IMG/VR virus record: IMGVR_UViG_3300045779_000011
Coordinates: 1-48,509 of that record
Length of the DNA stretch: 48,509 nt
Direction: 5' to 3' (one strand)
Source of the DNA: a virus
Taxonomy: Duplodnaviria; Caudoviricetes
Below, piece after piece: positions 1,601-40,604 of the stretch; position 1 is the stretch's first letter, and the number at the start of each line of letters is the position of its first letter. The position numbers and the translations under genes were made by a program. The notes under the pieces are model-generated. The model was not told where the DNA came from. It saw only the letters and a list, made by a program, of their open reading frames with translations, and did not search any database.

Positions 1601-4600
1601 ATGGCCGACTCTGTTGACGATTATCTGAACTCTGCACTAAAAACCCCAACCTCTTCTGCTAGAGAAGAGGTTCAGACTAGTGTCTCCCCTTCCCTCTCCC
1701 CTTCCCAGAATTCCGGAGGTTCCGTTGACGATTATCTGAACTCGGCACTATCCCCAAAACAAAATTCTCCCGTTTCCAATCCGGAAAATGGAAATCCTAA
1801 CCCAGAGGCTCACGATGAGTCCGATAGGTTTACTCAAGATGACCCTAATGACAACTGGCTAGAAAAAGGCTGGCACACTGCTAATAAACCTCTTACTGAG
1901 TCTCTGCTTGGTTGGGGCCAATATAGACAAGGTGCAGGGGGATTAGAGAGAGGGGTGGAAAAGGTATTATCTGGACTTACCTCTCCTCTTAGCTTGGTAA
2001 CTATGGCCGCTTTCGCCCCTGCGGGTATTGTAGGAAGTGTTGGTGGTAGCCTCCTCAAAGAAGGTTTGATGGAGGAGGGCGGAGCTATCCTCGGAGAGGC
2101 TATGGATGCTGCTAATGCCGGAGCTACTGTAGAAAAATATGCCGGGGCGGTGTCCGCCGCAACAAAGGCTAGAGTAGCTGGACAGAGCATCAATGAAGCT
2201 GTAACAAATGCGGGTATGACCCCTACTAATTTCGAAAAAATGGGAGAGTTCCTAAGAAGTAATGGGTTACAGGAGTCGGATCTTCTTAAAGAGGGAACCG
2301 TTCGAAGAGTGGCCGCACAGGGCTTGTACAAAGCCGGGATGTCTGCACAGGGGGCCGTATCTATAGCTAAAGGTGCCGAGACTCTAGTTAATGCGGGGTT
2401 CGCTGCACAGCAGATTCAAGGGGCCGTATACTCTCTCCCCCGTTTTGCTGATCTAATGGAACATGGACAGTATGATGAAGCCTCTGAGTACCTAGTTACT
2501 GGTGGGGCCTCCGCTTTGTTTGGTGCTCTCGGAGCCGCACACTCATTAAAGAGTATTGACACTTTAGTTCCAGGATTGAACGAAAAGAACAACCTGCCTT
2601 TGACCCAAGGCACCCAGAATATAATGAACGTGGTCAAGGCCCGGGACGCGGCAATGAATGCGGGCGTGGTAAAGTTCAATACTCTGAGCAAGGCTCTACA
2701 GAGAAGTATGTTTAATCTTGCGGGGGTTGAAGTTCCTGAATCTTTGCAAGAAGACGGGACATTTCTAGGGGCAGTTGGCGGGTCAATAAAGAACGTCGTA
2801 GACAAAGTTCTGCATAAGAATCCGGTAGACTCTCCTGAACTCGCGGCTACCCGAAAGGTTGTAAACTTCTTTATGCAGGCCGGTGGAGATACTAACCGAC
2901 TGTTTCAAGAAGGTCGCGCCCTTGCCGAAGCAATGGGTGAACAGGATAAGTGGGATGAGTTTACCAAAGACTACGCCCGCCCTACCCGTACCGTAGACCA
3001 CATTGTAGACGATCAGAAGTCTGATTATCTACTTACCAAACGCGCTATTGAAACGAGACAAGACCAAATAAAAGAACTCCAAGACAGGGTATCTGAAACC
3101 TCGGCGAGTCTTAAGAGAGCTTCGAGTCCTAGCAGTATAGCGTCTCTATCAGCGTCTTTAAGCGATTTTAGTACCCGTTTACAGGAGGCTCAGAAATTCC
3201 AAGAAGCTAACGAGGTCAAACTCGAAGGTCTCAAGAAATGGGAAGGTAGCCCCGAAGAAGCTCTAAAGGCACACCACCAGGAGTTAGTTAAAACTTTTTA
3301 TGAAATGAGAGCGAAGCAACTTCCGACAGAACCTAGTCCGGAAAGCGGAACGGCTCTAGACGAGTTTAACACCCGAGCAAATGTTATGGGTCACGCCGCC
3401 CATGACGCTCAGGTTATTCAGGAAGCGCACCCTGAGTGGTTTGAAGGGTCACAAGGCATAATCAAAGGATACCACGGTACTCCCGCTAAGTTCGAAGGTA
3501 TGCCAGATGCCGCCGGTCTCGGGACGCACGTTACTCCGGATAAGGCTCTAGCCGAAAGATTTGCTAACGAGAGCGGTGAATACGCCAAGTCGGGTAGGGA
3601 GCCTGGGCGAGTTATAGAAATGAATCTCGGGCTAAAGAACCCTCTCAGGATAGAGGACCACGGATTTCCTCACTCTAATGCTATAGCTACTATTACTGAT
3701 TTTGAAAAACAAGGAGTTATTCCGAAAGACCTTTTAGGGACGAAAGAAGAGATCACTAAGAGAATCACAGATAGGGCTGTAGAAATTTATGGAGGTCCTG
3801 AAGGTCTTAAGGGTATGAACAAAAAAGAACTGGGAGACACCCTTACAAGGTCCTACCAACAGGCGCATAATGAAGAATTAATTAAGGTAAAAGAATACCT
3901 AAAGTCAAAAGGATACGACGGTCTAGTTTATAAAAACGAACTAGAAAATGGGGGAAAGGATAACTACGTAGTCTTTGATAGAAATCAAATGCATGAACCT
4001 ATCAAAACTATCCCCACGGAAGACTTAGAAGGCTACGTAGGAAAGAACCAACCTACCTGGGAAGAAGGCCCCCGCCATCCAAAGCTTCCTGATGACTTGG
4101 AAGAGATGGTAGAAAAGTCTAAAGGCGTGTTTGCTAAAATGAAAGCAGACCACCCCGAAGAGTATCAACACCGTCTCGACATCCTTAAGGGGTATGCAGA
4201 CGCGGCCCGGGGTGTCTCTCCTGAAGTCCAGGCAATTGTAGATAGGCTCCGCCAAGCAGATGACGATATTTGGTCTGCTGGTAGTAATAACGATCTTATC
4301 CACGGATATATAGAGAATCACTTGTTCCGCCAATGGGGGGATGATACTAAAGTAGGTAATGTTCTCCGGACGGAAGCTAAAGCAGGGAACTTCGCTACTA
4401 ATGTAATTCAGGCCCGCCACAGATTTTATCAGATCCCTCTCGAAGGGTTCCTTTCCGGAAAGCGTATGCTTAACTACGATCCGGTTGAGGCTGTACGTAA
4501 GAACGGAATATGGGTAGCCGAGGCCGCAGCAAACAGAAAAGTAGTAGACGCCTTCCTAAAGTCCGATCTCAGAACCCCTCGTGGGATGCCTTTGTTTATC

Positions 4601-12579: not shown

Positions 12580-13125
12580 CTAGTCCTTCTCTCTGCTCTT
12601 TTCTAGATATACTATAGCGCGAGAAAGATTTTTGGTATCTTCTCCAAAGTATCCTAGAGCACTGTTACATTTATGACAGAGTATTCCTCTAACTTTCCCA
12701 GTAATGTGGCAATGGTCTATTCTCCTGTCGTTCCTTGATTCAAAGACTTTCAGGCATATAGCACATGAATTATTCTGAGATTCCACGATTTGTTCGACAT
12801 CTTCGGCTTCAATTCCGTACCTACTTCTTATAGTATTGTTTCTGAATCTCTCTGGGTCTTCTTCTCTGTACTTCTTTTTCCGTTCTCTATCTTGTTCCTT
12901 GTTTTCGTCCCTCCACTTTTTCCCGTAGGCTTTAGCTCTCTCTGGGTGCTCTTTTACCCAAACTTTAGCTCTTTCATACCTACACTTTTTACAGGAACCT
13001 TTTGGCGTCACATTCTCGGGAGTTCTTTCGTGACCCCGTAAACAGTGTGTTTTTCTTTTAGTACCCACAGCTACTCCGGCACCGTATAGTACACTTGCTC
13101 GATAAGACCTTCTTCTGCGGACCAC
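12580..13125 (-). CDS. Endonuclease VII-family nuclease
   Basis: CAIC...IDHCHITGKVRGILCHKCNSALG; N-terminal THCLRGH..TPEN..CKKC. Start uncertain. Confidence 0.88.
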   Translation of the reverse strand: MVRRRRSYRASVLYGAGVAVGTKRKTHCLRGHERTPENVTPKGSCKKCRYERAKVWVKEHPERAKAYGKKWRDENKEQDRERKKKYREEDPERFRNNTIRSRYGIEAEDVEQIVESQNNSCAICLKVFESRNDRRIDHCHITGKVRGILCHKCNSALGYFGEDTKNLSRAIVYLEKSREKD

Positions 13126-15151: not shown

Positions 15152-15894
15152 AATGGCTTCACCCATCCGGTAATCAAGCCAGCCAAGTAGCTAAAGAAAG
15201 CAATCTTGACTTTCTGTTTAAGGTTCTTCGCTTTGAGAGCCTTCACTTCTGTTTTACAGGCGATATCTTGATCCTTAATCTCTGTCTTCAGATTACTAAC
15301 CACATTATTGCAGGAATTAACTTCCGTGGTTAGCCCCCCAATCTGACTATCCTGGTTACTCTTAATGTTCTGGTCGTCTGATATCTGCTGCTTAAGCGCC
15401 GGGATTTGATCTAACGTAGCCGCCGTATTTCCTGCTTGCTGGTGGGTTAGATCAACCCCTGTTGTGCTGCTCTGTATCCCGGATTGACCTGTTAAAGTAT
15501 CCAATCTTGCCGCTAGCTGTTGGTTGTTAAGTTGCTGATCCAACACAGCTTGTTGAGCCGCCGACTTATATGCTGCCGCTGTTTGTGCCGCTAGCTGTTG
15601 GTTCTGTGCCTGAAGTTGCGACTGAATTACTGCTGTCTGCTTCTGTAGGTCTGCATACCCCGCAAGTAGGGTCTTGTTCGTCGCCTCTTGGGTTTTGAGA
15701 ACATTCGTGGCTACGACAGCTTCAGTTTTCGCTTCCGTATAATGCCTGTCGATCCAGTCGCGGCCCAGATACAGGACCACCAAAATAGACACCAATATAA
15801 GGACGAACTTTCCGTGAACCTTGAGCCACGCCCAGCCTTCTTTAACTTCTGATTCTATTTTTTCTACTTCTGTTACTTCCTGTGTACCCATCAT
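15148..15894 (-). CDS. Membrane-anchored coiled-coil protein, spanin-like
   Basis: N-terminal TM (FVLILVSILVVLYLG), long Gln-rich coiled coil, hydrophobic C-terminus. Confidence 0.5.
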   Translation of the reverse strand: MMGTQEVTEVEKIESEVKEGWAWLKVHGKFVLILVSILVVLYLGRDWIDRHYTEAKTEAVVATNVLKTQEATNKTLLAGYADLQKQTAVIQSQLQAQNQQLAAQTAAAYKSAAQQAVLDQQLNNQQLAARLDTLTGQSGIQSSTTGVDLTHQQAGNTAATLDQIPALKQQISDDQNIKSNQDSQIGGLTTEVNSCNNVVSNLKTEIKDQDIACKTEVKALKAKNLKQKVKIAFFSYLAGLITGWVKPL

Positions 15895-16406
15895 TCCCCC
15901 TCAAACCCGTTACGCCAGTCAGATTCACCGGCTAGAAACTTCTGGTAGTTCCTGATATAGATGGCCGCGTTTTCCATTAGTTCCGGATCATCGTTAAATT
16001 TCTGAATTGCTGCGTTACTCTGCCAGTTGAGTATCCCTCTAACACTTAGACGCTTCAGTCTTGCCTTAACCTTAGCCCGAGAAACCTGCTTTAGCCTATC
16101 TACTTCACAAAAGGTTAGGCGTTTGGGGCACTGAGGAAATTCATCAAACTTCGCCCCCACCGGCCACGAAAGCCAGTCTCCGTTAGGTTGTTTCTTGGAT
16201 ACAATCTTCCATCGTTCAATCTTGTGGTCGTGGTCCGTGTGAAGTGCTTTTTCTCCGAGTTGCGGTTTCCCTGAGATTGAACAGACTCCCCCGTTTCTAC
16301 GAAGAGCCTCGTCGTATTCCTTCTGTGTAATCGAAAACTTCTTACGTAGGTAGCGATCCCTTGGGGTCAATTTATCGGAGGTACTTCGGGTCTTCTTTAT
16401 TCTCAT
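15891..16406 (-). CDS. Divergent Endonuclease VII-like protein
   Basis: CSISG..LHTDHDH...VRGILNWQSNAAIQKFNDDP; most Zn-ligand Cys lost; long insertion. Confidence 0.7.
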   Translation of the reverse strand: MRIKKTRSTSDKLTPRDRYLRKKFSITQKEYDEALRRNGGVCSISGKPQLGEKALHTDHDHKIERWKIVSKKQPNGDWLSWPVGAKFDEFPQCPKRLTFCEVDRLKQVSRAKVKARLKRLSVRGILNWQSNAAIQKFNDDPELMENAAIYIRNYQKFLAGESDWRNGFEGE

Positions 16407-16538: not shown

Positions 16539-17654
16539 TCAAGGCTCCTCCCTCTTAAAAAAAGTTTTTACTGGCTTACAGAGTTCCCAAACTTGGCTGT
16601 CAAACTTGTCCATTCTCCCGTCCATTAGGGTGAACAAGAGTTCGGGGTGTGCATAAAGTTTTGCATAGAAAGCAAACGTCTTTCTGCGCTCCTTCTCGGA
16701 AACGTCCAACCCGAAGCACGCACCGTTAACTAGGGTGTTTATACTCCTAAAAGCCCCGGTATACGCGGTTTTCATAGCGTCGTGGTCTTGTTTTATATCT
16801 TTTGCTAGACTGTTGGCCCAAGACTTAATTTCCTCCGAAGCGTCCGCTAAGATTATATTAACATACTCCGCTCTCTTTGTAAACTCCCAAACAGAAATAC
16901 TTGAGGTGTTGAATACGATCTTATGCAAACGAACATAATCATCAAATTTCAGCTTCACACGAAACGCCGGACCTTCCGGTTGATAGTACGTTACCACATA
17001 CCCTTCTTCATTAGGGATATTCTTGGCTTGTATAACTCCGAGATCTTCGTAGGCATACTCCTTAACAACCTTGTAGTCTTTTAGCCAAGTGCTTACATAG
17101 AGGTCCGCGCACTCTGGAGAATACTCGGTACCATCCAGATTAATGGCCCCGAGTAGAACCAGACCTGAGTAGTCATAATCAACTACCTTTCTATCCTCCG
17201 GAATAATTACCTCGAATATAAAGCTGAGTTCTCTCTCCGAATAGGAACATATCTTTCCAGTAAAATGATTCCTGATCCAAGTGTCTGCCCACTTAGCTTG
17301 GTCGGATTCAAAACTTCCTCGGGTATTGACTACCAGTTCGTTCTTGTACCAAAACACAGAGAGATAGGACCCATCAGCCTTTTCAAACACACGAGGAGTT
17401 CCTTCCGGTAGCGGGCCGGATTTTGGATCACCCCAATTGAAAAATTTTTCAAATCCATGACTCTGAATCTCAAGATCGTCAGAGTATACCAAGCCACGGC
17501 AGCGGCGGAGGGTCTTACCCCACTCTGTCGTAACTGCTTTAGGGGTGTAGTTCAAAACCATCAAATCCAAAGAAGGGTGGCGGCGAGAAGACACAAATCC
17601 GTCGTCTATTAGTTGCCCCAGTTCATGTACATCGATGTATTCATTCAGCTTCAT
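16539..17654 (-). CDS. RNA ligase, T4 Rnl1-like
   Basis: CRGL, FEKFFNWG, motif I EKADGS, TRGSF, FE, EGYVV, VKLK. Confidence 0.9.
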   Translation of the reverse strand: MKLNEYIDVHELGQLIDDGFVSSRRHPSLDLMVLNYTPKAVTTEWGKTLRRCRGLVYSDDLEIQSHGFEKFFNWGDPKSGPLPEGTPRVFEKADGSYLSVFWYKNELVVNTRGSFESDQAKWADTWIRNHFTGKICSYSERELSFIFEVIIPEDRKVVDYDYSGLVLLGAINLDGTEYSPECADLYVSTWLKDYKVVKEYAYEDLGVIQAKNIPNEEGYVVTYYQPEGPAFRVKLKFDDYVRLHKIVFNTSSISVWEFTKRAEYVNIILADASEEIKSWANSLAKDIKQDHDAMKTAYTGAFRSINTLVNGACFGLDVSEKERRKTFAFYAKLYAHPELLFTLMDGRMDKFDSQVWELCKPVKTFFKREEP

Positions 17655-17808
17655 GTTGGTCCACCAGTTCTCCAAAAACTATATCGTAAATATCTTGCCA
17701 ATCTTCCTCTCGGGTTTCCGGACCTTCATAGTCAGAAAGAGGATACATCATTACAACGTCCTCCAAAACTCTGTCCGCTATTCTTTTCGCCAGTTCTTCG
17801 TAGGTCAT
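17641..17808 (-). CDS. Small acidic protein, 55 aa (not in ORF track)
   Basis: MTYEELAKRIADRVLEDVV...HEAE; ATGA overlap with the upstream gene. Confidence 0.65.
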   Translation of the reverse strand: MTYEELAKRIADRVLEDVVMMYPLSDYEGPETREEDWQDIYDIVFGELVDQHEAE

Positions 17809-18005
17809 AGTCTTGTCCTTGTGTCTCCGGGAGCTACTTGTACTTCTGGAAGGCTATAGTAATAAGAGTTCTCGTGGTTTAATCTAGCACACTCCTCTTT
17901 GCTTTGTCTAACCACTCCTGCTGTAGAAGACTCCCAACACATAAAAATTCCTGCCCAGCAAGAAGCCTGCTTACAGCTTTCGCAAACCCAAACATCAGAC
18001 ATCAA
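17805..18005 (-). CDS. Cys-rich hypothetical protein
   Basis: CESC.QASCW.GIFMC. Confidence 0.65.
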   Translation of the reverse strand: MMSDVWVCESCKQASCWAGIFMCWESSTAGVVRQSKEECARLNHENSYYYSLPEVQVAPGDTRTRL

Positions 18006-18910
18006 AAATCCTCCAAATCTCTTCCCCTAATCCACTCTACGTTTAATCCAAGGGCTTCCCAAGCCTTACAGACTCGCGGCCTGTCATCGAGTATCTTAAC
18101 AGGGGTAGACGGAAGTAGTTTCAAAAACTCTGGCTTCACAACTTCATCCGGCCTTCTGTCTCCCCTATCTCGGAATAGGAATAAGAATGGATTGAATATA
18201 GGAACATCTAGCTCCGGAAAAAGGGGATTGCCTACCCAGCAGTCTTTAAACCACTTCCTAGTTTCCCACTCATACTCTGCTCCGCGCCCGCTAACAATAA
18301 TAATCAGATGGCCGGAATCTTCTAGATCCTTAACTTTCTGGAATACCTCTATTACTGGACTGTCGAGATGAATTTCCGAGTAGTACGCATCCCAGTTTTT
18401 CTTATCCCCCTTAAGGAACCTTTCCCGTCCGTTAGAAGAGGCGAGGGTCCCATCGATATCTACAAGCACAATAGGCTTGTCCGGAAATTGAACTAACCCG
18501 TTTCGAAGAGCGGTCTTAATAATAACGTTTGCCCCTACGGAAGGAAGTCCTTTTTCCCCACGTTCCTTGTCTCTACGGATACACTCTTCGAGTGGGGTGT
18601 CCAGAAAAATAGTTTCTGAAGAATAGTCAAACCAAGTATCGCTGTAAAGTTCCTTCCAGAAGTCGGCCTTGAAATTTGTGTCATCAACAATAGCCGACCG
18701 CCCCTGCTCTAGGAGAACTTTAGCAAGAGCTTTCTCACAAGCGATGATAGTCTTCTCTCTGTCTCTAGACCACTTAGAGTCGAAGATCATGGCCCGAAGA
18801 TCGTCTCGGTTAATCCGGCCAGAGTTGTAGCCGGAGTCTTTAACCATCTTACGAGCTAGAGTGCTCTTTCCAGAGGCGGGCAGGCCCTTCAGTAAAGTTA
18901 GCTTACTCAA
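18002..18910 (-). CDS. pseT: Polynucleotide 5'-kinase / 3'-phosphatase (T4 PNK-like)
   Basis: GLPASGKST, RDDLR kinase domain; HAD motifs DIDGTL, SGR, DDR. Confidence 0.92.
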   Translation of the reverse strand: MSKLTLLKGLPASGKSTLARKMVKDSGYNSGRINRDDLRAMIFDSKWSRDREKTIIACEKALAKVLLEQGRSAIVDDTNFKADFWKELYSDTWFDYSSETIFLDTPLEECIRRDKERGEKGLPSVGANVIIKTALRNGLVQFPDKPIVLVDIDGTLASSNGRERFLKGDKKNWDAYYSEIHLDSPVIEVFQKVKDLEDSGHLIIIVSGRGAEYEWETRKWFKDCWVGNPLFPELDVPIFNPFLFLFRDRGDRRPDEVVKPEFLKLLPSTPVKILDDRPRVCKAWEALGLNVEWIRGRDLEDF

Positions 18911-19539: not shown

Positions 19540-20068
19540 GTGTTTTCTTGAAAAATAATAGACTTCCTACTGAAGCTGTCTTGGTATATTCGGGGGAGGG
19601 AAAATCAAGCTGAGATGCACCGAACACCGTAGCACCGTTTACAGTATCAAAAGTTTTGTTGTTTAATACTACGTCTAGATTTTCCAGTAATCGGACAAAG
19701 TTTACTTCTTCTTCTGGATAATCGCTGTGCCATACAGGAGCACCTGAACTCATGCTCTTAAAGAACATCGGATCTTCTAAGTACTGGCGGGGAGGAAATT
19801 TCTTTTGCCGGTTAACCAGAACGTGCAAGACTGCTGACATTCCGGGGTATAGTTCTGATCGGCCCTCCCGCCACGAGCACAGGGCTACTAGGGACTTGTC
19901 TAGGTCTTGAGCCACGACTCCAGACTCTTCTAGGTACTTCTGGAATACAGGATCACGGGGATCGGGCCACTCGTGGGAGGGTTTAGTTTCTTTTTCCCTC
20001 CACGACTTAACTAGATCGATACTCTTTTGGAACGTTTTAAAGTCCGTAGCGACCTCCCCACTTATCAC
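19529..20068 (-). CDS. Divergent SleB/Hydrolase_2-like cell wall hydrolase
   Basis: ALCSWREGRSE..GMSAVLHVLVNR...GATVF...VGSLLFF resembles the SleB pattern EarGE..G..AVa.Vi.NR...GA.yf...iG.H.F. Confidence 0.55.
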   Translation of the reverse strand: MISGEVATDFKTFQKSIDLVKSWREKETKPSHEWPDPRDPVFQKYLEESGVVAQDLDKSLVALCSWREGRSELYPGMSAVLHVLVNRQKKFPPRQYLEDPMFFKSMSSGAPVWHSDYPEEEVNFVRLLENLDVVLNNKTFDTVNGATVFGASQLDFPSPEYTKTASVGSLLFFKKTLDK

Positions 20069-21020
20069 AAACTATCTCTGCATATACTTCTTCTACCAGA
20101 TCGTTTATCCAGTCGTAGTCTGGTTCATTCCGTAAAACGGAAACCTTGGAAGCCTCTTCTACGTCTACTAGAAGTTGTTCGATGTCCTCGGCCACCTTTT
20201 CGTAGGGGAGCAAGCCTTTCTTGATCTCTAGGATGTGCTCTCGGTTCTGTAAAGGAAAAGTAACATTAGCTGTAGTCAAAAGTTCGACTGCCTCATTACC
20301 TACCCTTACCGCGTGAGACAAAGCCTTCCAGTCAATACCTTCGTTGTTCTCTGCCTTCCGTGCCCGGTCTCCGTAGTTCTCGTAGATTCGAGTATATATA
20401 CCAGCGGCCTCCTTGAGAGTATTCTTGAAACCCACCATACGGTTGCAGCACTCAAAGTAGGTCTCAAACTTTCCGGGAGTTGTTTCTTTGGTTACGATCT
20501 TAGTAAATTCTCCGGTCATCTCCGTAAGAAGGCTTTCGAAGTCCCCTACCTTACCTTGTGGGCTGTTTGAGTAGATTGTAGAGAAAACTTGACTGGCTTC
20601 CTTCGCGGCTTTTACCCGACTACCACGGATTCCATATTTGTTCGCTTGAGTTCTTACATATCCGACAAAGGAAGCACTTTTGGTTGTAAGTAGCTTTTCT
20701 TTGTTAGCTTTAATGGTCGTATACCACAAGAAAGAGTCAATCTCCGGATTAGGGGCAAATAACATATCGATAGCTACAGTCTGTCCCTCTGCCAACAATC
20801 CCAGATACCTTTGCAGAGAATAGGATTCATCATCTACATCTTCTGGGGAGTTCCTCTCCCCCGCTACCTTAGACTTTTTATTTCCAAGAGAACCTTTGAC
20901 TCTCTGTAAGAGAATGTCTGAGGCGTCGGGCAAATACACACTCTTATAGTCTAGGTCTGACAGAGGGGTATCTGTTCCATAGAGGTGGCTACCGAATTTT
21001 GTACGAAAGATAGTCTTCAC
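20037..21020 (-). CDS. Pol-beta superfamily nucleotidyltransferase (RlaP/YcgL-like)
   Basis: FGSHLYGTDTPLSDLDYKSVY; DWKALSHAVR; ILEIKKG. Confidence 0.85.
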   Translation of the reverse strand: MKTIFRTKFGSHLYGTDTPLSDLDYKSVYLPDASDILLQRVKGSLGNKKSKVAGERNSPEDVDDESYSLQRYLGLLAEGQTVAIDMLFAPNPEIDSFLWYTTIKANKEKLLTTKSASFVGYVRTQANKYGIRGSRVKAAKEASQVFSTIYSNSPQGKVGDFESLLTEMTGEFTKIVTKETTPGKFETYFECCNRMVGFKNTLKEAAGIYTRIYENYGDRARKAENNEGIDWKALSHAVRVGNEAVELLTTANVTFPLQNREHILEIKKGLLPYEKVAEDIEQLLVDVEEASKVSVLRNEPDYDWINDLVEEVYAEIVCDKWGGRYGL

Positions 21021-32882: not shown

Positions 32883-33437
32883 TTATTCTTTCTCCTTATC
32901 AATTCCCGGCCAGTTTCCCGGCCAACTATCGTGAACTTTCTTTACATCTGAAGGTAGTGCGTGGGGGCCGTACCTAGTTTTAAACCACCCTTGTATAAGA
33001 ACCCACTCGCTTAGTGACCAGCCGCCAAACTCTACTAGCTGTAGTTCTTGGTTGTGTTTCTTTTCCTCCTCTGTCTGAACTCTTCCTTTGTTTGCAGCAC
33101 TTATCTTCTCTTTTGTTTCTTCAGAACATTTTCCGTGAGAGCCTCCTGAAGCAATATTGTACCCTATAGACCTTTTTCTAGCCCCCATAAACCAAATAAA
33201 GAAAGTTTCAGCCGCGTCTAACGCTTCTTGATCCGGGCACTCACAAAGAGTTTCTATACTAAAGTTTTCGGAACCATAAAACCTCATCGCGTTGTATAGG
33301 TGAGAATTCTTGTTAAAAGTCCTATCAACTCGTTTAGAGTCTTTTATATGTCCTTTCCACCGAGTCTCCTTGTTGGACCTAGTTTGACCAATATAGTACA
33401 TATTTGTTACTAAATTGGATATTTTATATATTTCCAT
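32883..33437 (-). CDS. GIY-YIG endonuclease with NUMOD3-like motif
   Basis: IYKISN..YYIGQT..RW..H; GYN; SEETKEKISAANKG. Confidence 0.88.
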   Translation of the reverse strand: MEIYKISNLVTNMYYIGQTRSNKETRWKGHIKDSKRVDRTFNKNSHLYNAMRFYGSENFSIETLCECPDQEALDAAETFFIWFMGARKRSIGYNIASGGSHGKCSEETKEKISAANKGRVQTEEEKKHNQELQLVEFGGWSLSEWVLIQGWFKTRYGPHALPSDVKKVHDSWPGNWPGIDKEKE

Positions 33438-34326
33438 CGTTATATTCTTCTCCGTACAAAAGTTCTACTATTTTTGGTATGTATCTTTTATCCACACCTT
33501 CCGCTGCTTGACAATATACTCCAAGAAGCTGACCTTGAGAAAGATGCCCGGTTCTCGATCCAACCACCCGTTCCGGGAGTCCGAGATCGATTAAGAGGGC
33601 GGTGATGTTTCCTCTCCGGAAAGCATGTGGTGACTTATACTCTACCTTAGCTTTCTCACACACAGACTTAATCATCTTTGTTAGCCGGAGCGGATAGCTC
33701 ATTTTGTCTTCTGGAGTCCGGAATATGAAACATTCATCTCCGTTTAATATGAGATGTCGTAGTTCAGCTACGAGTTGGTCAGAAATTGTAATACTCCGTA
33801 ATGAGGAGTCTGTCTTTGGGGAGTCTTGTAAAATCCCCCCACACACGTCACGTTCGATCTTTAGGGTGTTTCCTGATAAATCCCTTGTCTGAAGTCCAAT
33901 CACCTCTCCTACCCGGCACCCGGTCTCAGCAAGTAGCATTACAAGAGCCTTTTCTTCACCAGAACTTGCTTTGATTAGCCTTCGAAACTCTTCTACCGTG
34001 TAAAAGTCTTGTTGTTTCCTACGTTTTCTCGGTAACGTTAGCCGGGGGAGAACAAAATCTTCGTCCGCCCACTGACAAATATTCCGGAAAATGGAAATAT
34101 ACCGCCTGATCGCCCCCGAACCTACACTCACATTCAATTTGCTGATAAAGTTCTGGATATCCTTCTTAGAAATTTGGTCTATTCTCTGGGGTCCAAATTC
34201 TAAGATCAATTTGTCTACCACATAACACACGTTGTAATACGTAGACGCCTTCTTAAGACTAAGAACGTCGTGCTTGTAGCTATCGGCGGCTATTACGAAC
34301 AGTGGGGATTCCTTCGGTTTCTTCAT
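33424..34326 (-). CDS. int: Tyrosine recombinase / integrase
   Basis: Catalytic set TGCRVGE, PKT, HAFRR, TGH, GVY. Confidence 0.9.
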   Translation of the reverse strand: MKKPKESPLFVIAADSYKHDVLSLKKASTYYNVCYVVDKLILEFGPQRIDQISKKDIQNFISKLNVSVGSGAIRRYISIFRNICQWADEDFVLPRLTLPRKRRKQQDFYTVEEFRRLIKASSGEEKALVMLLAETGCRVGEVIGLQTRDLSGNTLKIERDVCGGILQDSPKTDSSLRSITISDQLVAELRHLILNGDECFIFRTPEDKMSYPLRLTKMIKSVCEKAKVEYKSPHAFRRGNITALLIDLGLPERVVGSRTGHLSQGQLLGVYCQAAEGVDKRYIPKIVELLYGEEYNDGNI

Positions 34327-34334
34327 CTACTTTT

Positions 34335-34363
34335 ACTGTACCACACTTCTGTCTCCGTGTCAA
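34335..34363 (-). promoter_or_regulatory. Promoter of the recombinase gene (near-leaderless)
   Basis: TTGACA-17 bp (ends TGTGG)-TACAGT, 8 nt from the ATG. Confidence 0.8.
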
Positions 34364-34369
34364 GAGTTT

Positions 34370-37300
34370 TTATTGCTTGGTATAGTACGGAGTGGTAAAC
34401 CCTTCTGCTCCGAGAATAAATCCAGGTGCCCAGGGAATCTCCTCTGTCATATCTTCTACTAGCTCTTTCACTCCAAGAGGAGAATCTTCATCAACTTCGG
34501 CGCATATTTCATCGTGACACGAAAGCACAATTGGAAATCCCCTATCTTCGGCTCGAATCATTCCGTAGGCTAGAATATCTCGGCAAATAGCTTGAACAAT
34601 GTTCTCAAATATCTTAGCTCCACGGGTCTCCATATCCGGAACCCATTGGTGGGTTTCTGGATGGACCCCCGCACAGTAGAGATTTACTGCTTGGTATGTG
34701 TTCCCTTTCTTGGAGACTCTCTCTACCCGCTCTACGTAAGGATTTATGTAGTGTAGTGCCCTACCCGAAGGTAACCAGATACACAGAACTCGTCCCTGCA
34801 TCTCCAGTTTTACTGGACCCAAGGTAACTACAGAGTCGTTCTCTACTACGTTAGCGAAAGCCCTATGAAGATCGTACCAATAGTCTACAACCTCTTTGTA
34901 GCTCCTGCGGAAAACTTCGACAGATTTTTCAGCGTATTCCTTAGTTAGCTCAATTTGCATTGCCTCCGCATACGCAAGAAGGCCCGTCTTAACAACATTT
35001 CCTTCGTCGTCCTTATCGATATCTCCAGCAGAGAGTCCAAATCCGCAGTTATGAACAATTAGAGGACCCTTGTTCGTCAGAATTGTGAATCTGCTCTTCG
35101 GTCCCGAGTTTAGAATGTCGAACGTAGGGACCACGACACCGAGACTGTTCTGCAATGATCCTTTCTGGGGAGAGACCTTTCTTGAATTTTCTTGCGACAG
35201 TGCTGCTTTCTCGGTACTGTGGGCAATACTTCTCCCAGAACTCTTCCGAAGTGATTCTTTCTCCGTTATATTCGACGTAGCAAAGCTTTTCTTTGTTTCT
35301 ATTATTCTGCTTGCTTGTAACAAATCGAAGATTCCCTTTTTCGTAATTTCCGTCATTATTTTCTCTGTCGATTTGATACTTTGGCTTATCGTGGTTTTCG
35401 AGAGTGAGGCAGTACCCCACAAAATCATAAACATCTTCAAAGAGGCATCGGATACCTCTTCCACCATATCTATGTGCTTCTGGTCCAACTCCTCTGCACC
35501 GAGACTGGATTGCGTAGTATCTGTTTGCAAGTCTGTCAACAAGTTCTCTAGGGTATCGGCTAAATCGAACGTATACTCCGTTCTTCTCTTCCCGGATTTT
35601 CCTGTTGGCGCACGGTACGCATCCGTTTGTTTTTCCTGTCTCCAAGCTAAGTCTATAGACCCTCTTTTCGACTCCACATTCTTCGCACAAGCAGAGATAG
35701 TAGAATTCGTGTTTTCCTTTTTCGCTAGTTCGGACTTCTCCTCTTTTAACAGCCCAGTGACCAAACTTATATCCCTCTGGCCTAAGAGGGTATCTTGAAC
35801 TACGTCCTTTGCGTCCTTCCATCCATCCTCCGTAAGAATCTTATGATCCGGAGTAGCTTCAACTCCAAATAAATCAATAACTTTCTTCTCTCCCTGATAT
35901 ATTACCCCACTGTGGGATACCCAATCCTCCCCGTCCCAGAGAAGGTCATTTACAGACACTTCTGTAATAGGAGTCCATCCTCTGTTAGTAAGAACTGGAG
36001 TATCTTTTCCAAAGCACCCCAATTTGGGGGCCTTAGCATCTGTCCTAGTCTTCTTATTACCGGCCTTGAAGTCTGCATACAACTCCTCATAAGTCTTAGA
36101 AGGGTCCATAAGCACTGCAAAGCTGATATAGGGGTCGAGTCCTTTTCGAAATTCCTCCATACCAGAATCACATCCAGCTACCCAGAACTGTCCTCTGCTT
36201 TCAATAGCAGCTAGATCGGCAATAACAAATTTCTTTCCTGGAGCGGCCCGCAAAATTGGCCTAAGTGCGGAACAGGCTACGTCTAGGGGGCTGCTAAACT
36301 CTTTCTTGATGGTATCGTAGTTTCCTGCTTTCAGAAGTTCCATAGCAAGATCGAACTTTTTCTCAACCTCTTTTGTTGCCTTAATCAAATTATGCGCTTG
36401 AAAAAGTCCACTCGTCCAGCGTCCGGTTCTAGCCGCCCCCATATAGTTGAACAGCCCACGAACCCGGCCATCCGGCATTACCGAATTTTTGCAAGACTCC
36501 AGCTTGGCGACAGAACTCTTCGATACCTGGAGACGGAGTTCTAGAACACGCTTACCAAGAGCGTCAAGTTCGCACTCCCCATTCAAAGCCCTCTTAACGA
36601 AAGGCTTTCCGATTGAGGGAAAAGTATACCCATGCTGGCGAACAAAAGCCAACACCTGCTTAGGTGCCTTTGGGTTGGATATTCCGCTAATTTCACGGAA
36701 TTCCTTTAACAAGGACGCCTGTTCCTTCTCAACAATAATCCCCGCTCCCTGGAGCAGGACTGAATCCGTGTATATGCCTCGGTCATTGATGCGGGCATCT
36801 AGGGCTATCACTTCGTATTCAAAGTCAGTAAGAGGGAAGTCTTGGACTCTTCCCATGATTTCTTTCATGGCGTAGACATCTTGATCGCAGTACTGTCCGA
36901 ACCTATCCCATTCTTTTCTATGTGTGTCCCAGTCTCTGTAGGTTGTCGGCTCGATCCCGAAAAGAGTTAGCTCTCCCCCAAAACGAAGAGGAGCACAGAA
37001 CATATCCACCATGCTCTCGTCTTTGATAAAGAATTCAGTTAGCTTCTTGGACTTAATATCAAGAATCTTACCAACCTTTTCTAGTTTACCGGGCATGGAC
37101 ATATACCGACTTCGAAACATAGGGTCCTCGAATCGGTCCACTGAAATGTCCATTCCAAAGAACCTTTTGAAAACCAAACGCTCGAAACCTACTCCGTTCC
37201 AGGCCACAATTATAGTAAAGGGGTCCTCTAATGCTTCTTTAAGGTCTTCTGGAATAAAACCAGAAGTATGCGTCTCCCACCTCTTCATGGGTTGGTCGTC

Positions 37301-37414
37301 AATCATATATGAAGTCATTAATAGTTCTGTAGACGGATGGAAGACGTAACGATACGCGCCAACTTCTTTAATATTTAATTCACTACGGGTCTCAGTATCG
37401 CAGAACAGATACAT
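34370..37414 (-). CDS. Family A DNA polymerase with intein
   Basis: Exo DTET; ARTGRW; motif A ADLAAIESR; motif B R..AK..LG|CGFG split by the intein; ENIVQAICRD; motif C HDEI. Confidence 0.93.
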   Translation of the reverse strand: MYLFCDTETRSELNIKEVGAYRYVFHPSTELLMTSYMIDDQPMKRWETHTSGFIPEDLKEALEDPFTIIVAWNGVGFERLVFKRFFGMDISVDRFEDPMFRSRYMSMPGKLEKVGKILDIKSKKLTEFFIKDESMVDMFCAPLRFGGELTLFGIEPTTYRDWDTHRKEWDRFGQYCDQDVYAMKEIMGRVQDFPLTDFEYEVIALDARINDRGIYTDSVLLQGAGIIVEKEQASLLKEFREISGISNPKAPKQVLAFVRQHGYTFPSIGKPFVKRALNGECELDALGKRVLELRLQVSKSSVAKLESCKNSVMPDGRVRGLFNYMGAARTGRWTSGLFQAHNLIKATKEVEKKFDLAMELLKAGNYDTIKKEFSSPLDVACSALRPILRAAPGKKFVIADLAAIESRGQFWVAGCDSGMEEFRKGLDPYISFAVLMDPSKTYEELYADFKAGNKKTRTDAKAPKLGCFGKDTPVLTNRGWTPITEVSVNDLLWDGEDWVSHSGVIYQGEKKVIDLFGVEATPDHKILTEDGWKDAKDVVQDTLLGQRDISLVTGLLKEEKSELAKKENTNSTISACAKNVESKRGSIDLAWRQEKQTDAYRAPTGKSGKRRTEYTFDLADTLENLLTDLQTDTTQSSLGAEELDQKHIDMVEEVSDASLKMFMILWGTASLSKTTISQSIKSTEKIMTEITKKGIFDLLQASRIIETKKSFATSNITEKESLRKSSGRSIAHSTEKAALSQENSRKVSPQKGSLQNSLGVVVPTFDILNSGPKSRFTILTNKGPLIVHNCGFGLSAGDIDKDDEGNVVKTGLLAYAEAMQIELTKEYAEKSVEVFRRSYKEVVDYWYDLHRAFANVVENDSVVTLGPVKLEMQGRVLCIWLPSGRALHYINPYVERVERVSKKGNTYQAVNLYCAGVHPETHQWVPDMETRGAKIFENIVQAICRDILAYGMIRAEDRGFPIVLSCHDEICAEVDEDSPLGVKELVEDMTEEIPWAPGFILGAEGFTTPYYTKQ
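35048..36016 (-). mobile_element. Intein (323 aa) in polymerase motif B
   Basis: Starts CFGKDTPVLT, block B ATPDHKI, block F TFDI, ends IVHN followed by extein Cys. Confidence 0.93.
35049..35822 (-). CDS. HNH homing endonuclease overprinted in the -1 frame of the intein
   Basis: GYKFGHW, CLCEECG, SLETG..GCVPC, RC...YGGRGI, IDRENNDGNYEKGNLRFVTSKQNNRNK; ATG 4 nt after GGAGG. Confidence 0.88.
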   Translation of the reverse strand: MEGRKGRSSRYPLRPEGYKFGHWAVKRGEVRTSEKGKHEFYYLCLCEECGVEKRVYRLSLETGKTNGCVPCANRKIREEKNGVYVRFSRYPRELVDRLANRYYAIQSRCRGVGPEAHRYGGRGIRCLFEDVYDFVGYCLTLENHDKPKYQIDRENNDGNYEKGNLRFVTSKQNNRNKEKLCYVEYNGERITSEEFWEKYCPQYRESSTVARKFKKGLSPERIIAEQSRCRGPYVRHSKLGTEEQIHNSDEQGSSNCS

Positions 37415-37417
37415 AGT

Positions 37418-38110
37418 CTACTTTCTTATTCTGTGGCTCTTTGGTCCAGGAGTCCAATCCCCGAACAGGTTTTCTTTGTGTATTTCTTTCAGGACAGGAA
37501 AAAATTTAATCCAAGCAGAATAAGGCATATCCCTTCTTAGATAATTGCATCTACGGCAAGAAGGAACGACGTTAGATTGAAGGTGTCCTAAAGAGTTATC
37601 TACTCTATCTAAAGTCATCCTCATGTCTGTAGCTTCGCAACAAGAGCAAGGACTATTCATACCCTCTTCTACAAAAGAAAGAGTTAGATCATTTTCTAGA
37701 CCACGAACCTCGTCTCTCTTTTTAGATTCCTTTAAAAAGTTCTTTGCTTGGTGTTTTTGGTAGTTATAGTTTCTTCCTCCACGTCTTATCCTAGCTTTTG
37801 TTGTCATACTTTTGTGGTGTTCTTTCGTTCTTTCATAGGTCTCTTTACCTTTTAAGTTTCGACAGGAGGTGCAGTAAGAGAAGAGTAAATTTCCTCGATA
37901 AGGTAAAGTATTGTTTAAAGTCTTTTCTACCCCACATATGGGGCAAAACTGAGGTTCTCCTTTTCTTGGCCTTCTCCCTGTATACGGAGCATCCGGATTC
38001 CTTCGTTTCCTACCTTCTCGGCAATACTCGTTCCAGTTTTCTAAACAGACCAAGCATTTACATTTGTGTTGAGTATATGCTGTTAAAGTTCCGTGAACTA
38101 TTTCTTTCAT
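37418..38110 (-). CDS. HNH endonuclease
   Basis: HGT...Y..HKCKC..C; CPICG..CTSC; CSCC..TLDRVDNSLGHLQSNVVPSCRRCN. Confidence 0.87.
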   Translation of the reverse strand: MKEIVHGTLTAYTQHKCKCLVCLENWNEYCREGRKRRNPDAPYTGRRPRKGEPQFCPICGVEKTLNNTLPYRGNLLFSYCTSCRNLKGKETYERTKEHHKSMTTKARIRRGGRNYNYQKHQAKNFLKESKKRDEVRGLENDLTLSFVEEGMNSPCSCCEATDMRMTLDRVDNSLGHLQSNVVPSCRRCNYLRRDMPYSAWIKFFPVLKEIHKENLFGDWTPGPKSHRIRK

Positions 38111-39224: not shown

Positions 39225-39640
39225 ACGTTCTCCTTCTGAAACAAAGCTAGCTCCCGTTTACGGCGGGCCAGCAAAGCAGGTACATCTTTACCGCCTGCTT
39301 TGTCCCACCTAAGAATCTGTTCAGGAATCTGGTCTATTCCGTGGGCTAGAAGCATACGAAGGGAGCCTACTCCCAAATTGAATCCAAAACTAGCCAAAGC
39401 ATCGTGCTGATTCTGGTTTAGGTCTGGGGCTATCCGGGTCAGAACTTCATCCACCTTGGCCACGTCCGCAGCCAAAAGCGCGTATGCTTGCTCCTGTGTG
39501 ATACCCCCAGAGAAATCTTCTCCCGGCAAGATAAGATGCCCTACGCCGATAGTTGGCTTCCCAACAGAATCGAGATAGACCTTTAGTCTGAGTCCTTCTT
39601 GCTCTTCAATAAACTTTAGTCCGTTAGCCGATGTTTTCAT
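39221..39640 (-). CDS. Endolysin, GH24 lysozyme
   Basis: EGLRLKVYLDSVGKPTIGVGH (E-D-T triad), FNLG, RRKRE. Confidence 0.93.
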   Translation of the reverse strand: MKTSANGLKFIEEQEGLRLKVYLDSVGKPTIGVGHLILPGEDFSGGITQEQAYALLAADVAKVDEVLTRIAPDLNQNQHDALASFGFNLGVGSLRMLLAHGIDQIPEQILRWDKAGGKDVPALLARRKRELALFQKENV

Positions 39641-40604
39641 TAATCTTCTCCATCCAGTAGGATTTCGCCCGCTTATTTACTTCCCCCATCACTTCTTTTC
39701 GTGATAGCCCGGAAGCATCAATGGTATCTACTTCCTCTTTTATTACGTCTTGGCCCACGAGTTTTAGGTAGGCCCCGGTATTCTTCATTTTTAATTCTAA
39801 CCCAAGTTCCTTCAAGCTGTCAAGCTTTTTCTCTAGCCTGTGCTCAGTAAGAATAGTGTCCACTAGCTCTTTGATCGAATTCAATTTTTCTACATCTACA
39901 GGGGCCAAAGTTTTTACCTTAGACTCAGAGTGCTTCTCTCCCTTGACCTTGAATTCCAGATCTCGGACGTTAAACGTTGGATGAGGGAGGGGCCACCAAA
40001 CAATTCCCTCCCCTACACCAGAAACCCCATGTGCCTTCCCTACCGGGCATTCGTTCTCTACTGCTTGAGTAAGTTCTACAAGCCTGTTCTGTGCTTCCTC
40101 TGGGTGGTTGAAATCAATAGTAATCTCCCAAGTAGGGTAGTTGTAGATACAATCAAGATTCAATATCCTAGCGGTCGTCTTTACTGTGCTGACACTCGCC
40201 CACCAGCTATCTCCGTTCTCTAGCATTCGAACAGCAAATACAATAAAATTCTTTGGTAGCTGGGAAATAGCTACACCTTTTCGAATGCTCTGTCCACACC
40301 ACTCACCGTATACCACCATATTCCAACCGGAGAAGCTAGCAAACTTTTCCTCGTTATCGTGAACCCACTTAGAGAACCCCGCATTATCGTGTTCTGGATC
40401 AATGACCTGTGTCCTAGACTGTTCGTACTGGCCCTCTACTCCGTTTTCCGGAAAAACTATAGAGGCGTTAGTCCCGTGAAGTTTAACTGAACCAATAAAC
40501 GACACAGTAGGAAGAGGCACACCTAAATGTTCGGCCCGCTTCCTAACCAACTTGATGCAATTCCTAAATTGTCCAATATCAGCAAACGGAATATGCACGT
40601 TCAT
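39624..40604 (-). CDS. RNA ligase, Rnl2-like
   Basis: KLHGTN, QSR, DNAGF, YGEWCG, GEGIVW, FKVKG. Confidence 0.85.
   Translation of the reverse strand: MNVHIPFADIGQFRNCIKLVRKRAEHLGVPLPTVSFIGSVKLHGTNASIVFPENGVEGQYEQSRTQVIDPEHDNAGFSKWVHDNEEKFASFSGWNMVVYGEWCGQSIRKGVAISQLPKNFIVFAVRMLENGDSWWASVSTVKTTARILNLDCIYNYPTWEITIDFNHPEEAQNRLVELTQAVENECPVGKAHGVSGVGEGIVWWPLPHPTFNVRDLEFKVKGEKHSESKVKTLAPVDVEKLNSIKELVDTILTEHRLEKKLDSLKELGLELKMKNTGAYLKLVGQDVIKEEVDTIDASGLSRKEVMGEVNKRAKSYWMEKINENIG

Follow-up and report, generated by a model that had tools for sequence, protein, structure and literature searches.

A predicted self-splicing intein and a conserved nuclease gene nested in a shifted frame within a phage DNA polymerase gene likely act as one homing element

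Does a single stretch of one strand in a phage DNA polymerase gene encode both an intein and a separate nuclease read in another frame, and do the two work together? We addressed this question in a 48.5-kb viral record that holds a phage replication module; the window is the whole stretch of DNA that we analyzed (48,509 nt), and all positions refer to it. The dual-frame layout, with an intein and a nested nuclease ORF on the same strand, is real. The features concerned are the following.

34370..37414, minus strand: family-A DNA polymerase gene (PolA ORF) encoding a 1014-aa precursor (ORF; PHROG 17, 7766 and 10285, DNA polymerase; intein-free orthologs).
35048..36016, minus strand: predicted class-1 intein of 323 aa, inserted between LG and CGFG (invariant residues; profile matches; predicted structure).
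35807..36016, minus strand: predicted N-terminal splicing region, intein residues 1-70 (pLDDT 94-98; dN/dS 0.10 over residues 1-60 in relatives).
35048..35137, minus strand: predicted C-terminal splicing region, intein residues 294-323 (pLDDT 88-97; alignment).
35138..35806, minus strand: intein-frame linker, stop-free and mostly disordered, a shadow of the nuclease gene (pLDDT; dN/dS 1.64; codon adaptation 0.72).
35049..35822, minus strand: nested gene for a probable His-Me-finger-type nuclease of 257 aa, in frame +2, equivalent to -1 (PHROG 374; invariant residues; model).
35827..35831, minus strand: Shine-Dalgarno (SD)-like GGAGG, 4 nt ahead of the nested ATG, made by intein codons T62-E63-D64 (sequence; duplex energy).

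The polymerase ORF matched PHROG 17 (DNA polymerase) with an E value of 7e-83, and intein-free orthologs could be aligned with it end to end at 56-67% identity. The intein occupies precursor residues 467-789, running from Cys1 to a terminal His-Asn followed by Cys at +1, and the exteins total 691 aa, the predicted length of the spliced product. The original prediction of a 323-aa intein with intact splicing blocks held up: C1, T55, H58, W66, D300, H322, and N323 are invariant among 40 aligned inteins, and the class-1 residue set is present (Cys1, the block B TxxH, the block F Asp, the terminal His-Asn, and the +1 Cys). The intein profile matched solved inteins (E value of 1e-4), the predicted structure resembled DnaX and DnaB mini-intein structures (best Foldseek E value of 8e-4), and all 43 of the Foldseek matches listed for the model were HINT-family chains. 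Pfam gave no match to the intein and NCBIfam barely any; the NCBIfam family NF038136 (radical-SAM intein, E value of 1e-3) was considered and rejected, with a single member above the cutoff (L258) and no nuclease match in its six frames. Model confidence was about 88-98 pLDDT at residues 1-70 and 291-323 and mostly below 50 at residues 106-258, and the intein-frame match to PHROGs was confined to residues 14-76. As originally described, the middle of the intein is featureless, with S, T, K, and E making up 42% of residues 71-295, and the nuclease profile gave no in-frame match in 120 homologous polymerases, out of 341 polymerase-sized proteins matching the intein region. The orthologous polymerases L173, L174/L176, and L175 lack the intein and read LGC uninterrupted at the insertion site, which we take to be motif B of PolA. 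By its sequence and its model, the insert is a class-1 intein, and splicing is predicted.

Several other genes surround the polymerase. A free-standing endonuclease VII/HNH-like gene (37418-38110) lies directly upstream, and a tyrosine integrase gene (33424-34326) lies directly downstream, with a near-consensus sigma-70 promoter at 34363-34335. Further free-standing nuclease genes in the window are a GIY-YIG gene (32883-33437) and two endonuclease VII-like genes (15891-16406 and 12580-13125), and there is an RNA-repair set of two RNA ligase genes, a polynucleotide kinase, and a nucleotidyltransferase (16539-18910, 39624-40604, and 20037-21020). Contigs of two sequencing runs depart from the window sequence at 34332, which indicates that some relatives differ downstream of the polymerase.

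The nested ORF starts 194 nt into the intein. It matched PHROG 374 ("HNH endonuclease") with an E value of 4e-26 and, far more weakly, PHROG 1035 ("endonuclease VII") with an E value of 1e-7; Pfam and NCBIfam gave no match to it, and Pfam Endonuclease_7 was not found. The model (mean pLDDT of 80) has an N-terminal barrel with two CxxC pairs (C46/C49 and C68/C71), a core holding D152, R153, Y160, N164, N173, and N176, and a C-terminal helical domain, ending in a tail (residues 232-257) below 50; this unconserved tail is the part overlapped by the intein's C-terminal splicing region. All 73 dereplicated relatives have R108, R122, G123, D152, R153, Y160, N164, and N176, and 72 of them keep all four CxxC cysteines. 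The original prediction of a 257-aa HNH nuclease in the -1 frame was right about the ORF, but the name HNH is loose, because the same relatives share no conserved His, and the site reads D152-R153...Y160...N173/N176 with D152-R153 at the HNH catalytic position.

We searched widely for structures resembling the nuclease core, and the best match was PacI (3m7k; Z score of 5.5, rmsd of 3.2, 89 residues aligned), which lies within background and ties with unrelated barrels. At an E value of 0.001, Foldseek found no match to the model in the PDB, and a profile search of PDB sequences matched no solved nuclease; neither absence is informative about the fold. Among predicted viral structures, 75 match the model at an E value of 0.001, many of them named HNH. 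The spacing of the D-R pair, Y at +8, and N at +21 presumably agrees with PacI numbering. The lack of a catalytic His, the invariant Tyr, and the loop Tyr that replaces His in PacI make "His-Me finger, probably PacI-like" a better description than HNH, and on these grounds the protein is probably such an enzyme, with predicted activity. An antisense ORF over the same DNA (35070-35798, plus strand, 242 aa) had no Pfam match and no counterpart of steady length in relatives, and we rejected it as a shadow.

We surveyed the family in two ways. A search with a splice-junction DNA pattern, blind to the nuclease, returned 86 viral loci, of which 67 could be fully delineated and 19 could not; the nuclease lies in +2 in 66 of the 67, and the remaining one is a 141-aa mini-intein. 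A scan with the nuclease profile, blind to frame, found 548 loci; among the best 80, the nuclease of 75 is overlapped by a second frame free of stops (nuclease in +2 in 30 and in +1 in 45). A scan of viral contigs with the single nuclease protein found nothing, while the alignment-based scan succeeded. Pooled, the searches gave 145 inteins, 122 of them distinct, with the nuclease in +2 in 84, in +1 in 37, absent in 1, and in frame in 0. Among the best 80 nuclease relatives in cellular genomes, 17 are nested, all in the polymerase intein's family (16 polymerases and 1 helicase), and the other 63 are free-standing, with no open overlapping frame on the same strand. The layout came from peat, gut, and freshwater and from cultured phages of Salmonella, E. 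coli, Sodalis, Caulobacter, and Gardnerella; SO-1, AV129, and SETP5 carry the nuclease in +2, and GB2A and vB_Gva_AB1 carry it in +1. Both the nuclease and the intein are matched by 145 Salmonella phage records. Of six records examined, only that of SO-1 annotates the nested ORF, which is labeled there as an intron.

Some members depart from the common form. One family intein with its nuclease in +1 (L254:3-2438) sits inside a gene for an SF2 helicase (Helicase_C, ResIII) in a Lentisphaeria MAG, which gives the family a second host protein. Another locus (L104, about 2760-3700) has four intein-frame stops over the nuclease core, an intact nuclease ORF, and both splicing ends; it is possibly a split intein derived from the polymerase-intein family, or else a broken polymerase. 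A 580-aa protein (P0190) appears to consist of the N-terminal part of a terminase and an intein N-half, joined in frame to a related nuclease with which the protein stops; it belongs to a different intein clade and has a fractured layout. Shortened inteins of 123-182 aa (L024, L027, and L048; P0063, P0098, P0116, P0129, P0130, P0145, and P0148) represent decay to mini-inteins, and L024 and L027 retain nuclease remnants in +2. The intein also occurs at several neighboring positions in or near the polymerase motif (L100, L105, L110, L129, and L169; P0051, P0054, P0055, and P0063), and among these loci there is a second intein site before or after the "EN" of the YGG..EN motif.

We estimated dN/dS by frame from pairs of 80-99.5% identity drawn from 78 sequences, with short and stop-bearing sequences dropped. 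Over 14 independent pairs, the ratio was 0.156 in the nuclease frame, 1.64 in the intein frame, and 0.10 in the N-terminal splicing region (residues 1-60), and 9 pairs of the +1 group gave 0.10, 1.59, and 0.12, respectively. Differences concentrate at the third position of nuclease codons (0.13 versus 0.04 and 0.02). These results show purifying selection on the nuclease frame and the splicing blocks. An intein-frame ratio above 1 is the expected shadow of the nuclease frame, and the contrast between about 1.6 and 0.16 indicates that the linker is kept stop-free with no sign of amino acid constraint. The idea that both frames are under selection is thus correct for the nuclease frame and for the stop-free state of the intein frame, but over the overlap the intein-frame amino acids show no constraint. 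The frame-by-frame comparison suggested with the original prediction gave the expected answer: the nuclease frame is conserved and the linker is not, and there was no case for the reverse, a conserved linker over a -1 frame lost to stops.

Over the same pairs, synonymous divergence was 0.15-0.18 in the intein versus 0.42-0.46 in the exteins. A search with only the N-extein found three distinct polymerases (56-67% identical), all of them without the intein, and one polymerase that is equally close (67%) has it; intein-free alleles among the closest polymerases are as homing predicts. With the intein-bearing polymerase gene of a Dhillonvirus as the query, 9 of 315 records covered at least 80%, and 27 of the 60 matches listed covered 71-72%, in two pieces; against Salmonella phages, this query matched only around the intein. 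Judged by sequence comparison, the patchy distribution and the low divergence of the intein relative to the exteins fit homing. The nuclease tree and the splicing-domain tree both split the +1 from the +2 group (SH-aLRT of 83 and 99), so that the nuclease and the splicing domain travel together; the trees come from quick searches, unrooted and without bootstrap, in which one origin with a frame switch looks the same as two invasions.

Based on these results, we propose that the predicted self-splicing intein and the conserved shifted-frame nuclease likely act as one homing element in the phage DNA polymerase, with a probability of roughly 0.8. Ribosomes starting at the polymerase ATG would make the 1014-aa precursor, from which the intein would excise itself by the class-1 Cys1/His/Asn/Cys+1 route, with the linker discarded. 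Other ribosomes would initiate at the internal SD-ATG and produce the free 257-aa nuclease. During coinfection, the nuclease would cut or nick intein-free polymerase alleles near the LG/CGFG junction through a PacI-like Tyr/Asp/Arg/Asn site, and repair would copy the whole 969-nt element. Keeping both frames open costs little: a synonymous change of nuclease codons is enough to remove almost any stop from the intein frame, and conserved intein codons (x-Trp, x-Tyr-Asp/Glu, and His-Asn) provide start and stop codons for the shifted frames.

The nested protein may instead be expressed and conserved but not be a homing enzyme, serving as an inactive DNA-binding protein or as a nuclease with another use for the phage, such as excluding competitors. 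Its missing catalytic His would fit this explanation, as would the lack of a known activity for any close relative in structure libraries and the other free-standing nuclease genes of the window, which could act in trans. However, all 73 relatives keep the D, R, Y, and N of the predicted site, the accessible text on PacI describes an active enzyme with Tyr in place of His (PMC5714182), and the patchy distribution and low intein divergence fit homing. We therefore consider a nonhoming role unlikely.

In the homing reading, the nuclease would be initiated separately, and the signals for this were as originally described, with a start of its own behind GGAGG. The SD duplex of -9.5 kcal/mol is at least as strong as those of 18 of the 19 other window genes (exceeded by 1 and equaled by 1). 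In the window, the +2 frame has its last upstream stop at intein codon 58 and then a single start before the conserved domain, the ATG at codon 65; this position is unlike the usual family start (codon 31/33), and the 4-nt SD-ATG spacing is short. In the +2 group, a start codon is found at intein codon 31 in 47 of 49 relatives (43 open; 40 with an SD of -6 kcal/mol or lower), and in the +1 group an ATG is found at intein codon 49 in 17 of 20 (14 with an SD of -6 kcal/mol or lower). The TAA stop lies within the CAT AAC (His-Asn) codons in the window, as had been noted, but only 18 of 49 relatives use this stop; such start and stop counts overstate the number of events because related sequences are not independent. 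In +2 relatives, +2-frame stops are depleted over codons 33-63 (10 observed versus 65 expected), and no such depletion was found over codons 1-31 (86 observed versus 73 expected) or in the same frame of the +1 group. The SD-like strings are in part a by-product of purine-rich Asp-Gly-Glu codons. Since the nuclease starts arise from conserved intein codons, the splicing domain is partly read in two frames in most members. A promoter scan gave 4 sites versus 5.3 expected, and no site within the intein was of use.

If the nuclease instead came from a programmed -1 frameshift of ribosomes translating the intein frame, the product would be a fusion of the polymerase N part, the intein N part, and the nuclease, with no free protein. 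There is room for such a shift, since the shifted frame opens at intein codon 59 in the window and at about codons 25-31 in most relatives, and P0190 offers a case in which half of an unrelated terminase intein continues in frame into such a nuclease. However, canonical slippery heptamers occur in codons 46-85 in just 4 of 49 relatives and are absent there from the window, the SD-start pairs are conserved, and about half of the +1 group has a stop 2-3 codons upstream of the ATG. Frameshifting thus appears quite improbable, and we favor internal initiation of a free nuclease.

How far chance could produce the layout was assessed by synonymous recoding. When the nuclease was recoded, the intein frame stayed stop-free in 2 of 20,000 trials (mean of 8.1 stops), so the chance of a stop-free overlap is about 1e-4 rather than the 1e-5 first estimated; when the intein was recoded, the nuclease frame stayed open in 0 of 20,000 trials. 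The longest off-frame, same-strand open stretch among 17 other window genes is 81 codons. Codon adaptation was 0.83 for the nuclease frame, 0.72 for the intein frame, and 0.75-0.83 for other genes, indicating that codon use tracks the nested frame. The compensating indels that might have been feared at the outset did not appear: contigs were compared for 8 of 20 listed runs, not counting the possible source run, and none has an indel. One contig (run X2) covers the entire intein with a single substitution, which changes an amino acid in both frames, and a substitution at window position 35663 occurs in four runs (R54W in the nuclease and R584S in the precursor). These eight runs, with depths of 2-7, gave no contig joined across the intein, and missing cover of this kind proves nothing. 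Contigs of an RNA-library run (X18) lie over 35415-35755 and are silent on strand, start, and expression.

A normal intein with its nuclease in frame, corrupted by a pair of compensating errors in sequencing or assembly, is refuted, as is a frame open by chance: these contigs lack indels, 121 of 122 distinct inteins show the same layout, cultured phages included, and the in-frame form is absent from the 120 polymerases, as is, in a weak test, a PolA domain from 60 longer nuclease-bearing proteins. The GenBank note for phage SO-1 gp38/gp39 makes the insert a group I intron removed from RNA. This has next to no chance of being correct: 34300-37500 has 0 Rfam matches at an E value of 1, the length of the insert is a multiple of three, and the insert has the intein fold and invariant protein-splicing residues on which purifying selection acts.

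A broader proposal, which we put forward tentatively and at somewhat less than even odds, is that the out-of-frame arrangement is neither accidental nor a transitional stage but the stable, and perhaps obligatory, state of an intein that ranks among the commonest in phage polymerases. Its His-less, tyrosine-using nuclease would never have been fused to the intein, would have settled in both shifted frames, and would be switched on by ribosome-binding and start signals supplied by the conserved codons of the splicing domain, with 15-35 codons read in two frames. If this proposal is true, many of the inteins now listed as degenerate or as lacking a nuclease are active homing elements, a prediction that is testable in ordinary coliphages. 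The intein-plus and intein-free Dhillonviruses provide a bench system for asking whether the element homes and how a gene inside an essential gene is translated. The nuclease would be an uncharacterized, His-less class of homing enzyme, and the family offers a test of the "splicing first, nuclease invades later" model of intein evolution.

The architecture was at first thought to be undescribed, and this view has to be given up, since it is in print for other inteins in two preprints (bioRxiv 10.64898/2026.09.14.751524 and, in its accessible text, bioRxiv 10.1101/2025.01.02.630785). In the accessible text of the latter, Gosselin, Arsenault, and Gogarten describe inteins of actinobacteriophages that carry an endonuclease VII-like gene "in reading frame 3 relative to the intein" and propose that a free-standing nuclease gene invaded an intein. 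As described there, these inteins have in common with the PolA intein a contiguous intein, a same-strand, frame-3 nuclease of the His-Me-finger type, an unstructured in-frame linker, and a phage host. By the same description, their nuclease matches T4 endonuclease VII (1E7D); the PolA-intein nuclease has a His-less D-R...Y...N site and a barrel/CxxC N-terminal domain. The DNA polymerase host that the accessible text names is Pol III alpha, whereas the host here is family A.

Phillips, DeSimone, and Gogarten (bioRxiv 10.64898/2026.09.14.751524, which cites Gorbalenya 1998) describe a cyanobacterial dnaX intein with a +2-frame LAGLIDADG gene, its own SD, and frame-specific dN/dS. The two systems share the frame offset, an SD of their own, a disordered linker, low dN/dS in the nuclease frame only, and the coexistence of full, mini, and empty alleles, but the dnaX case has a LAGLIDADG nuclease, a cellular dnaX host, and an unrelated intein. 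Both preprints, the first in its accessible text, call out-of-frame intein nucleases rare (10.1101/2025.01.02.630785; 10.64898/2026.09.14.751524), whereas here the layout is the rule in more than 120 distinct inteins and in two frames, and annotation nearly always misses the nested gene. The ShiLan domain and other hidden HNH insertions in phage methylases, in the accessible text of PMC11855218, likewise combine a stop-free in-frame insert with an HNH gene in frame 3 and a stop in a terminal TAAC; the ShiLan domain is described there as being without a splicing domain, and the insert is thought to be retained in the host protein. A search of the accessible literature found no paper on the hidden gene of the PolA intein, and the accessible parts of two phage genome papers (PMC8425127 and PMC11162368) do not mention it.

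PacI, placed in His-Me finger group 20 with a loop tyrosine in place of the catalytic histidine in the accessible text of PMC5714182, may share this Tyr-for-His His-Me finger with the nested nuclease and is its best core match. It differs in being a restriction enzyme that is not intein-borne, and the match has 10% identity and a weak score. Dassa reportedly described in 2009 fractured genes in which split inteins flank a free-standing endonuclease. Those systems are alike in that a nuclease gene lies between intein halves, apart from the splicing frame; their host frame is broken, whereas that of the PolA intein reads through, and L104 has intein-frame stops with the nuclease intact. The principle of an out-of-frame intein nuclease is thus already published for other inteins, and the PolA-intein element would work in the same way but departs from the published cases in its type of nuclease, its host gene, its scale, and its occupation of both shifted frames.
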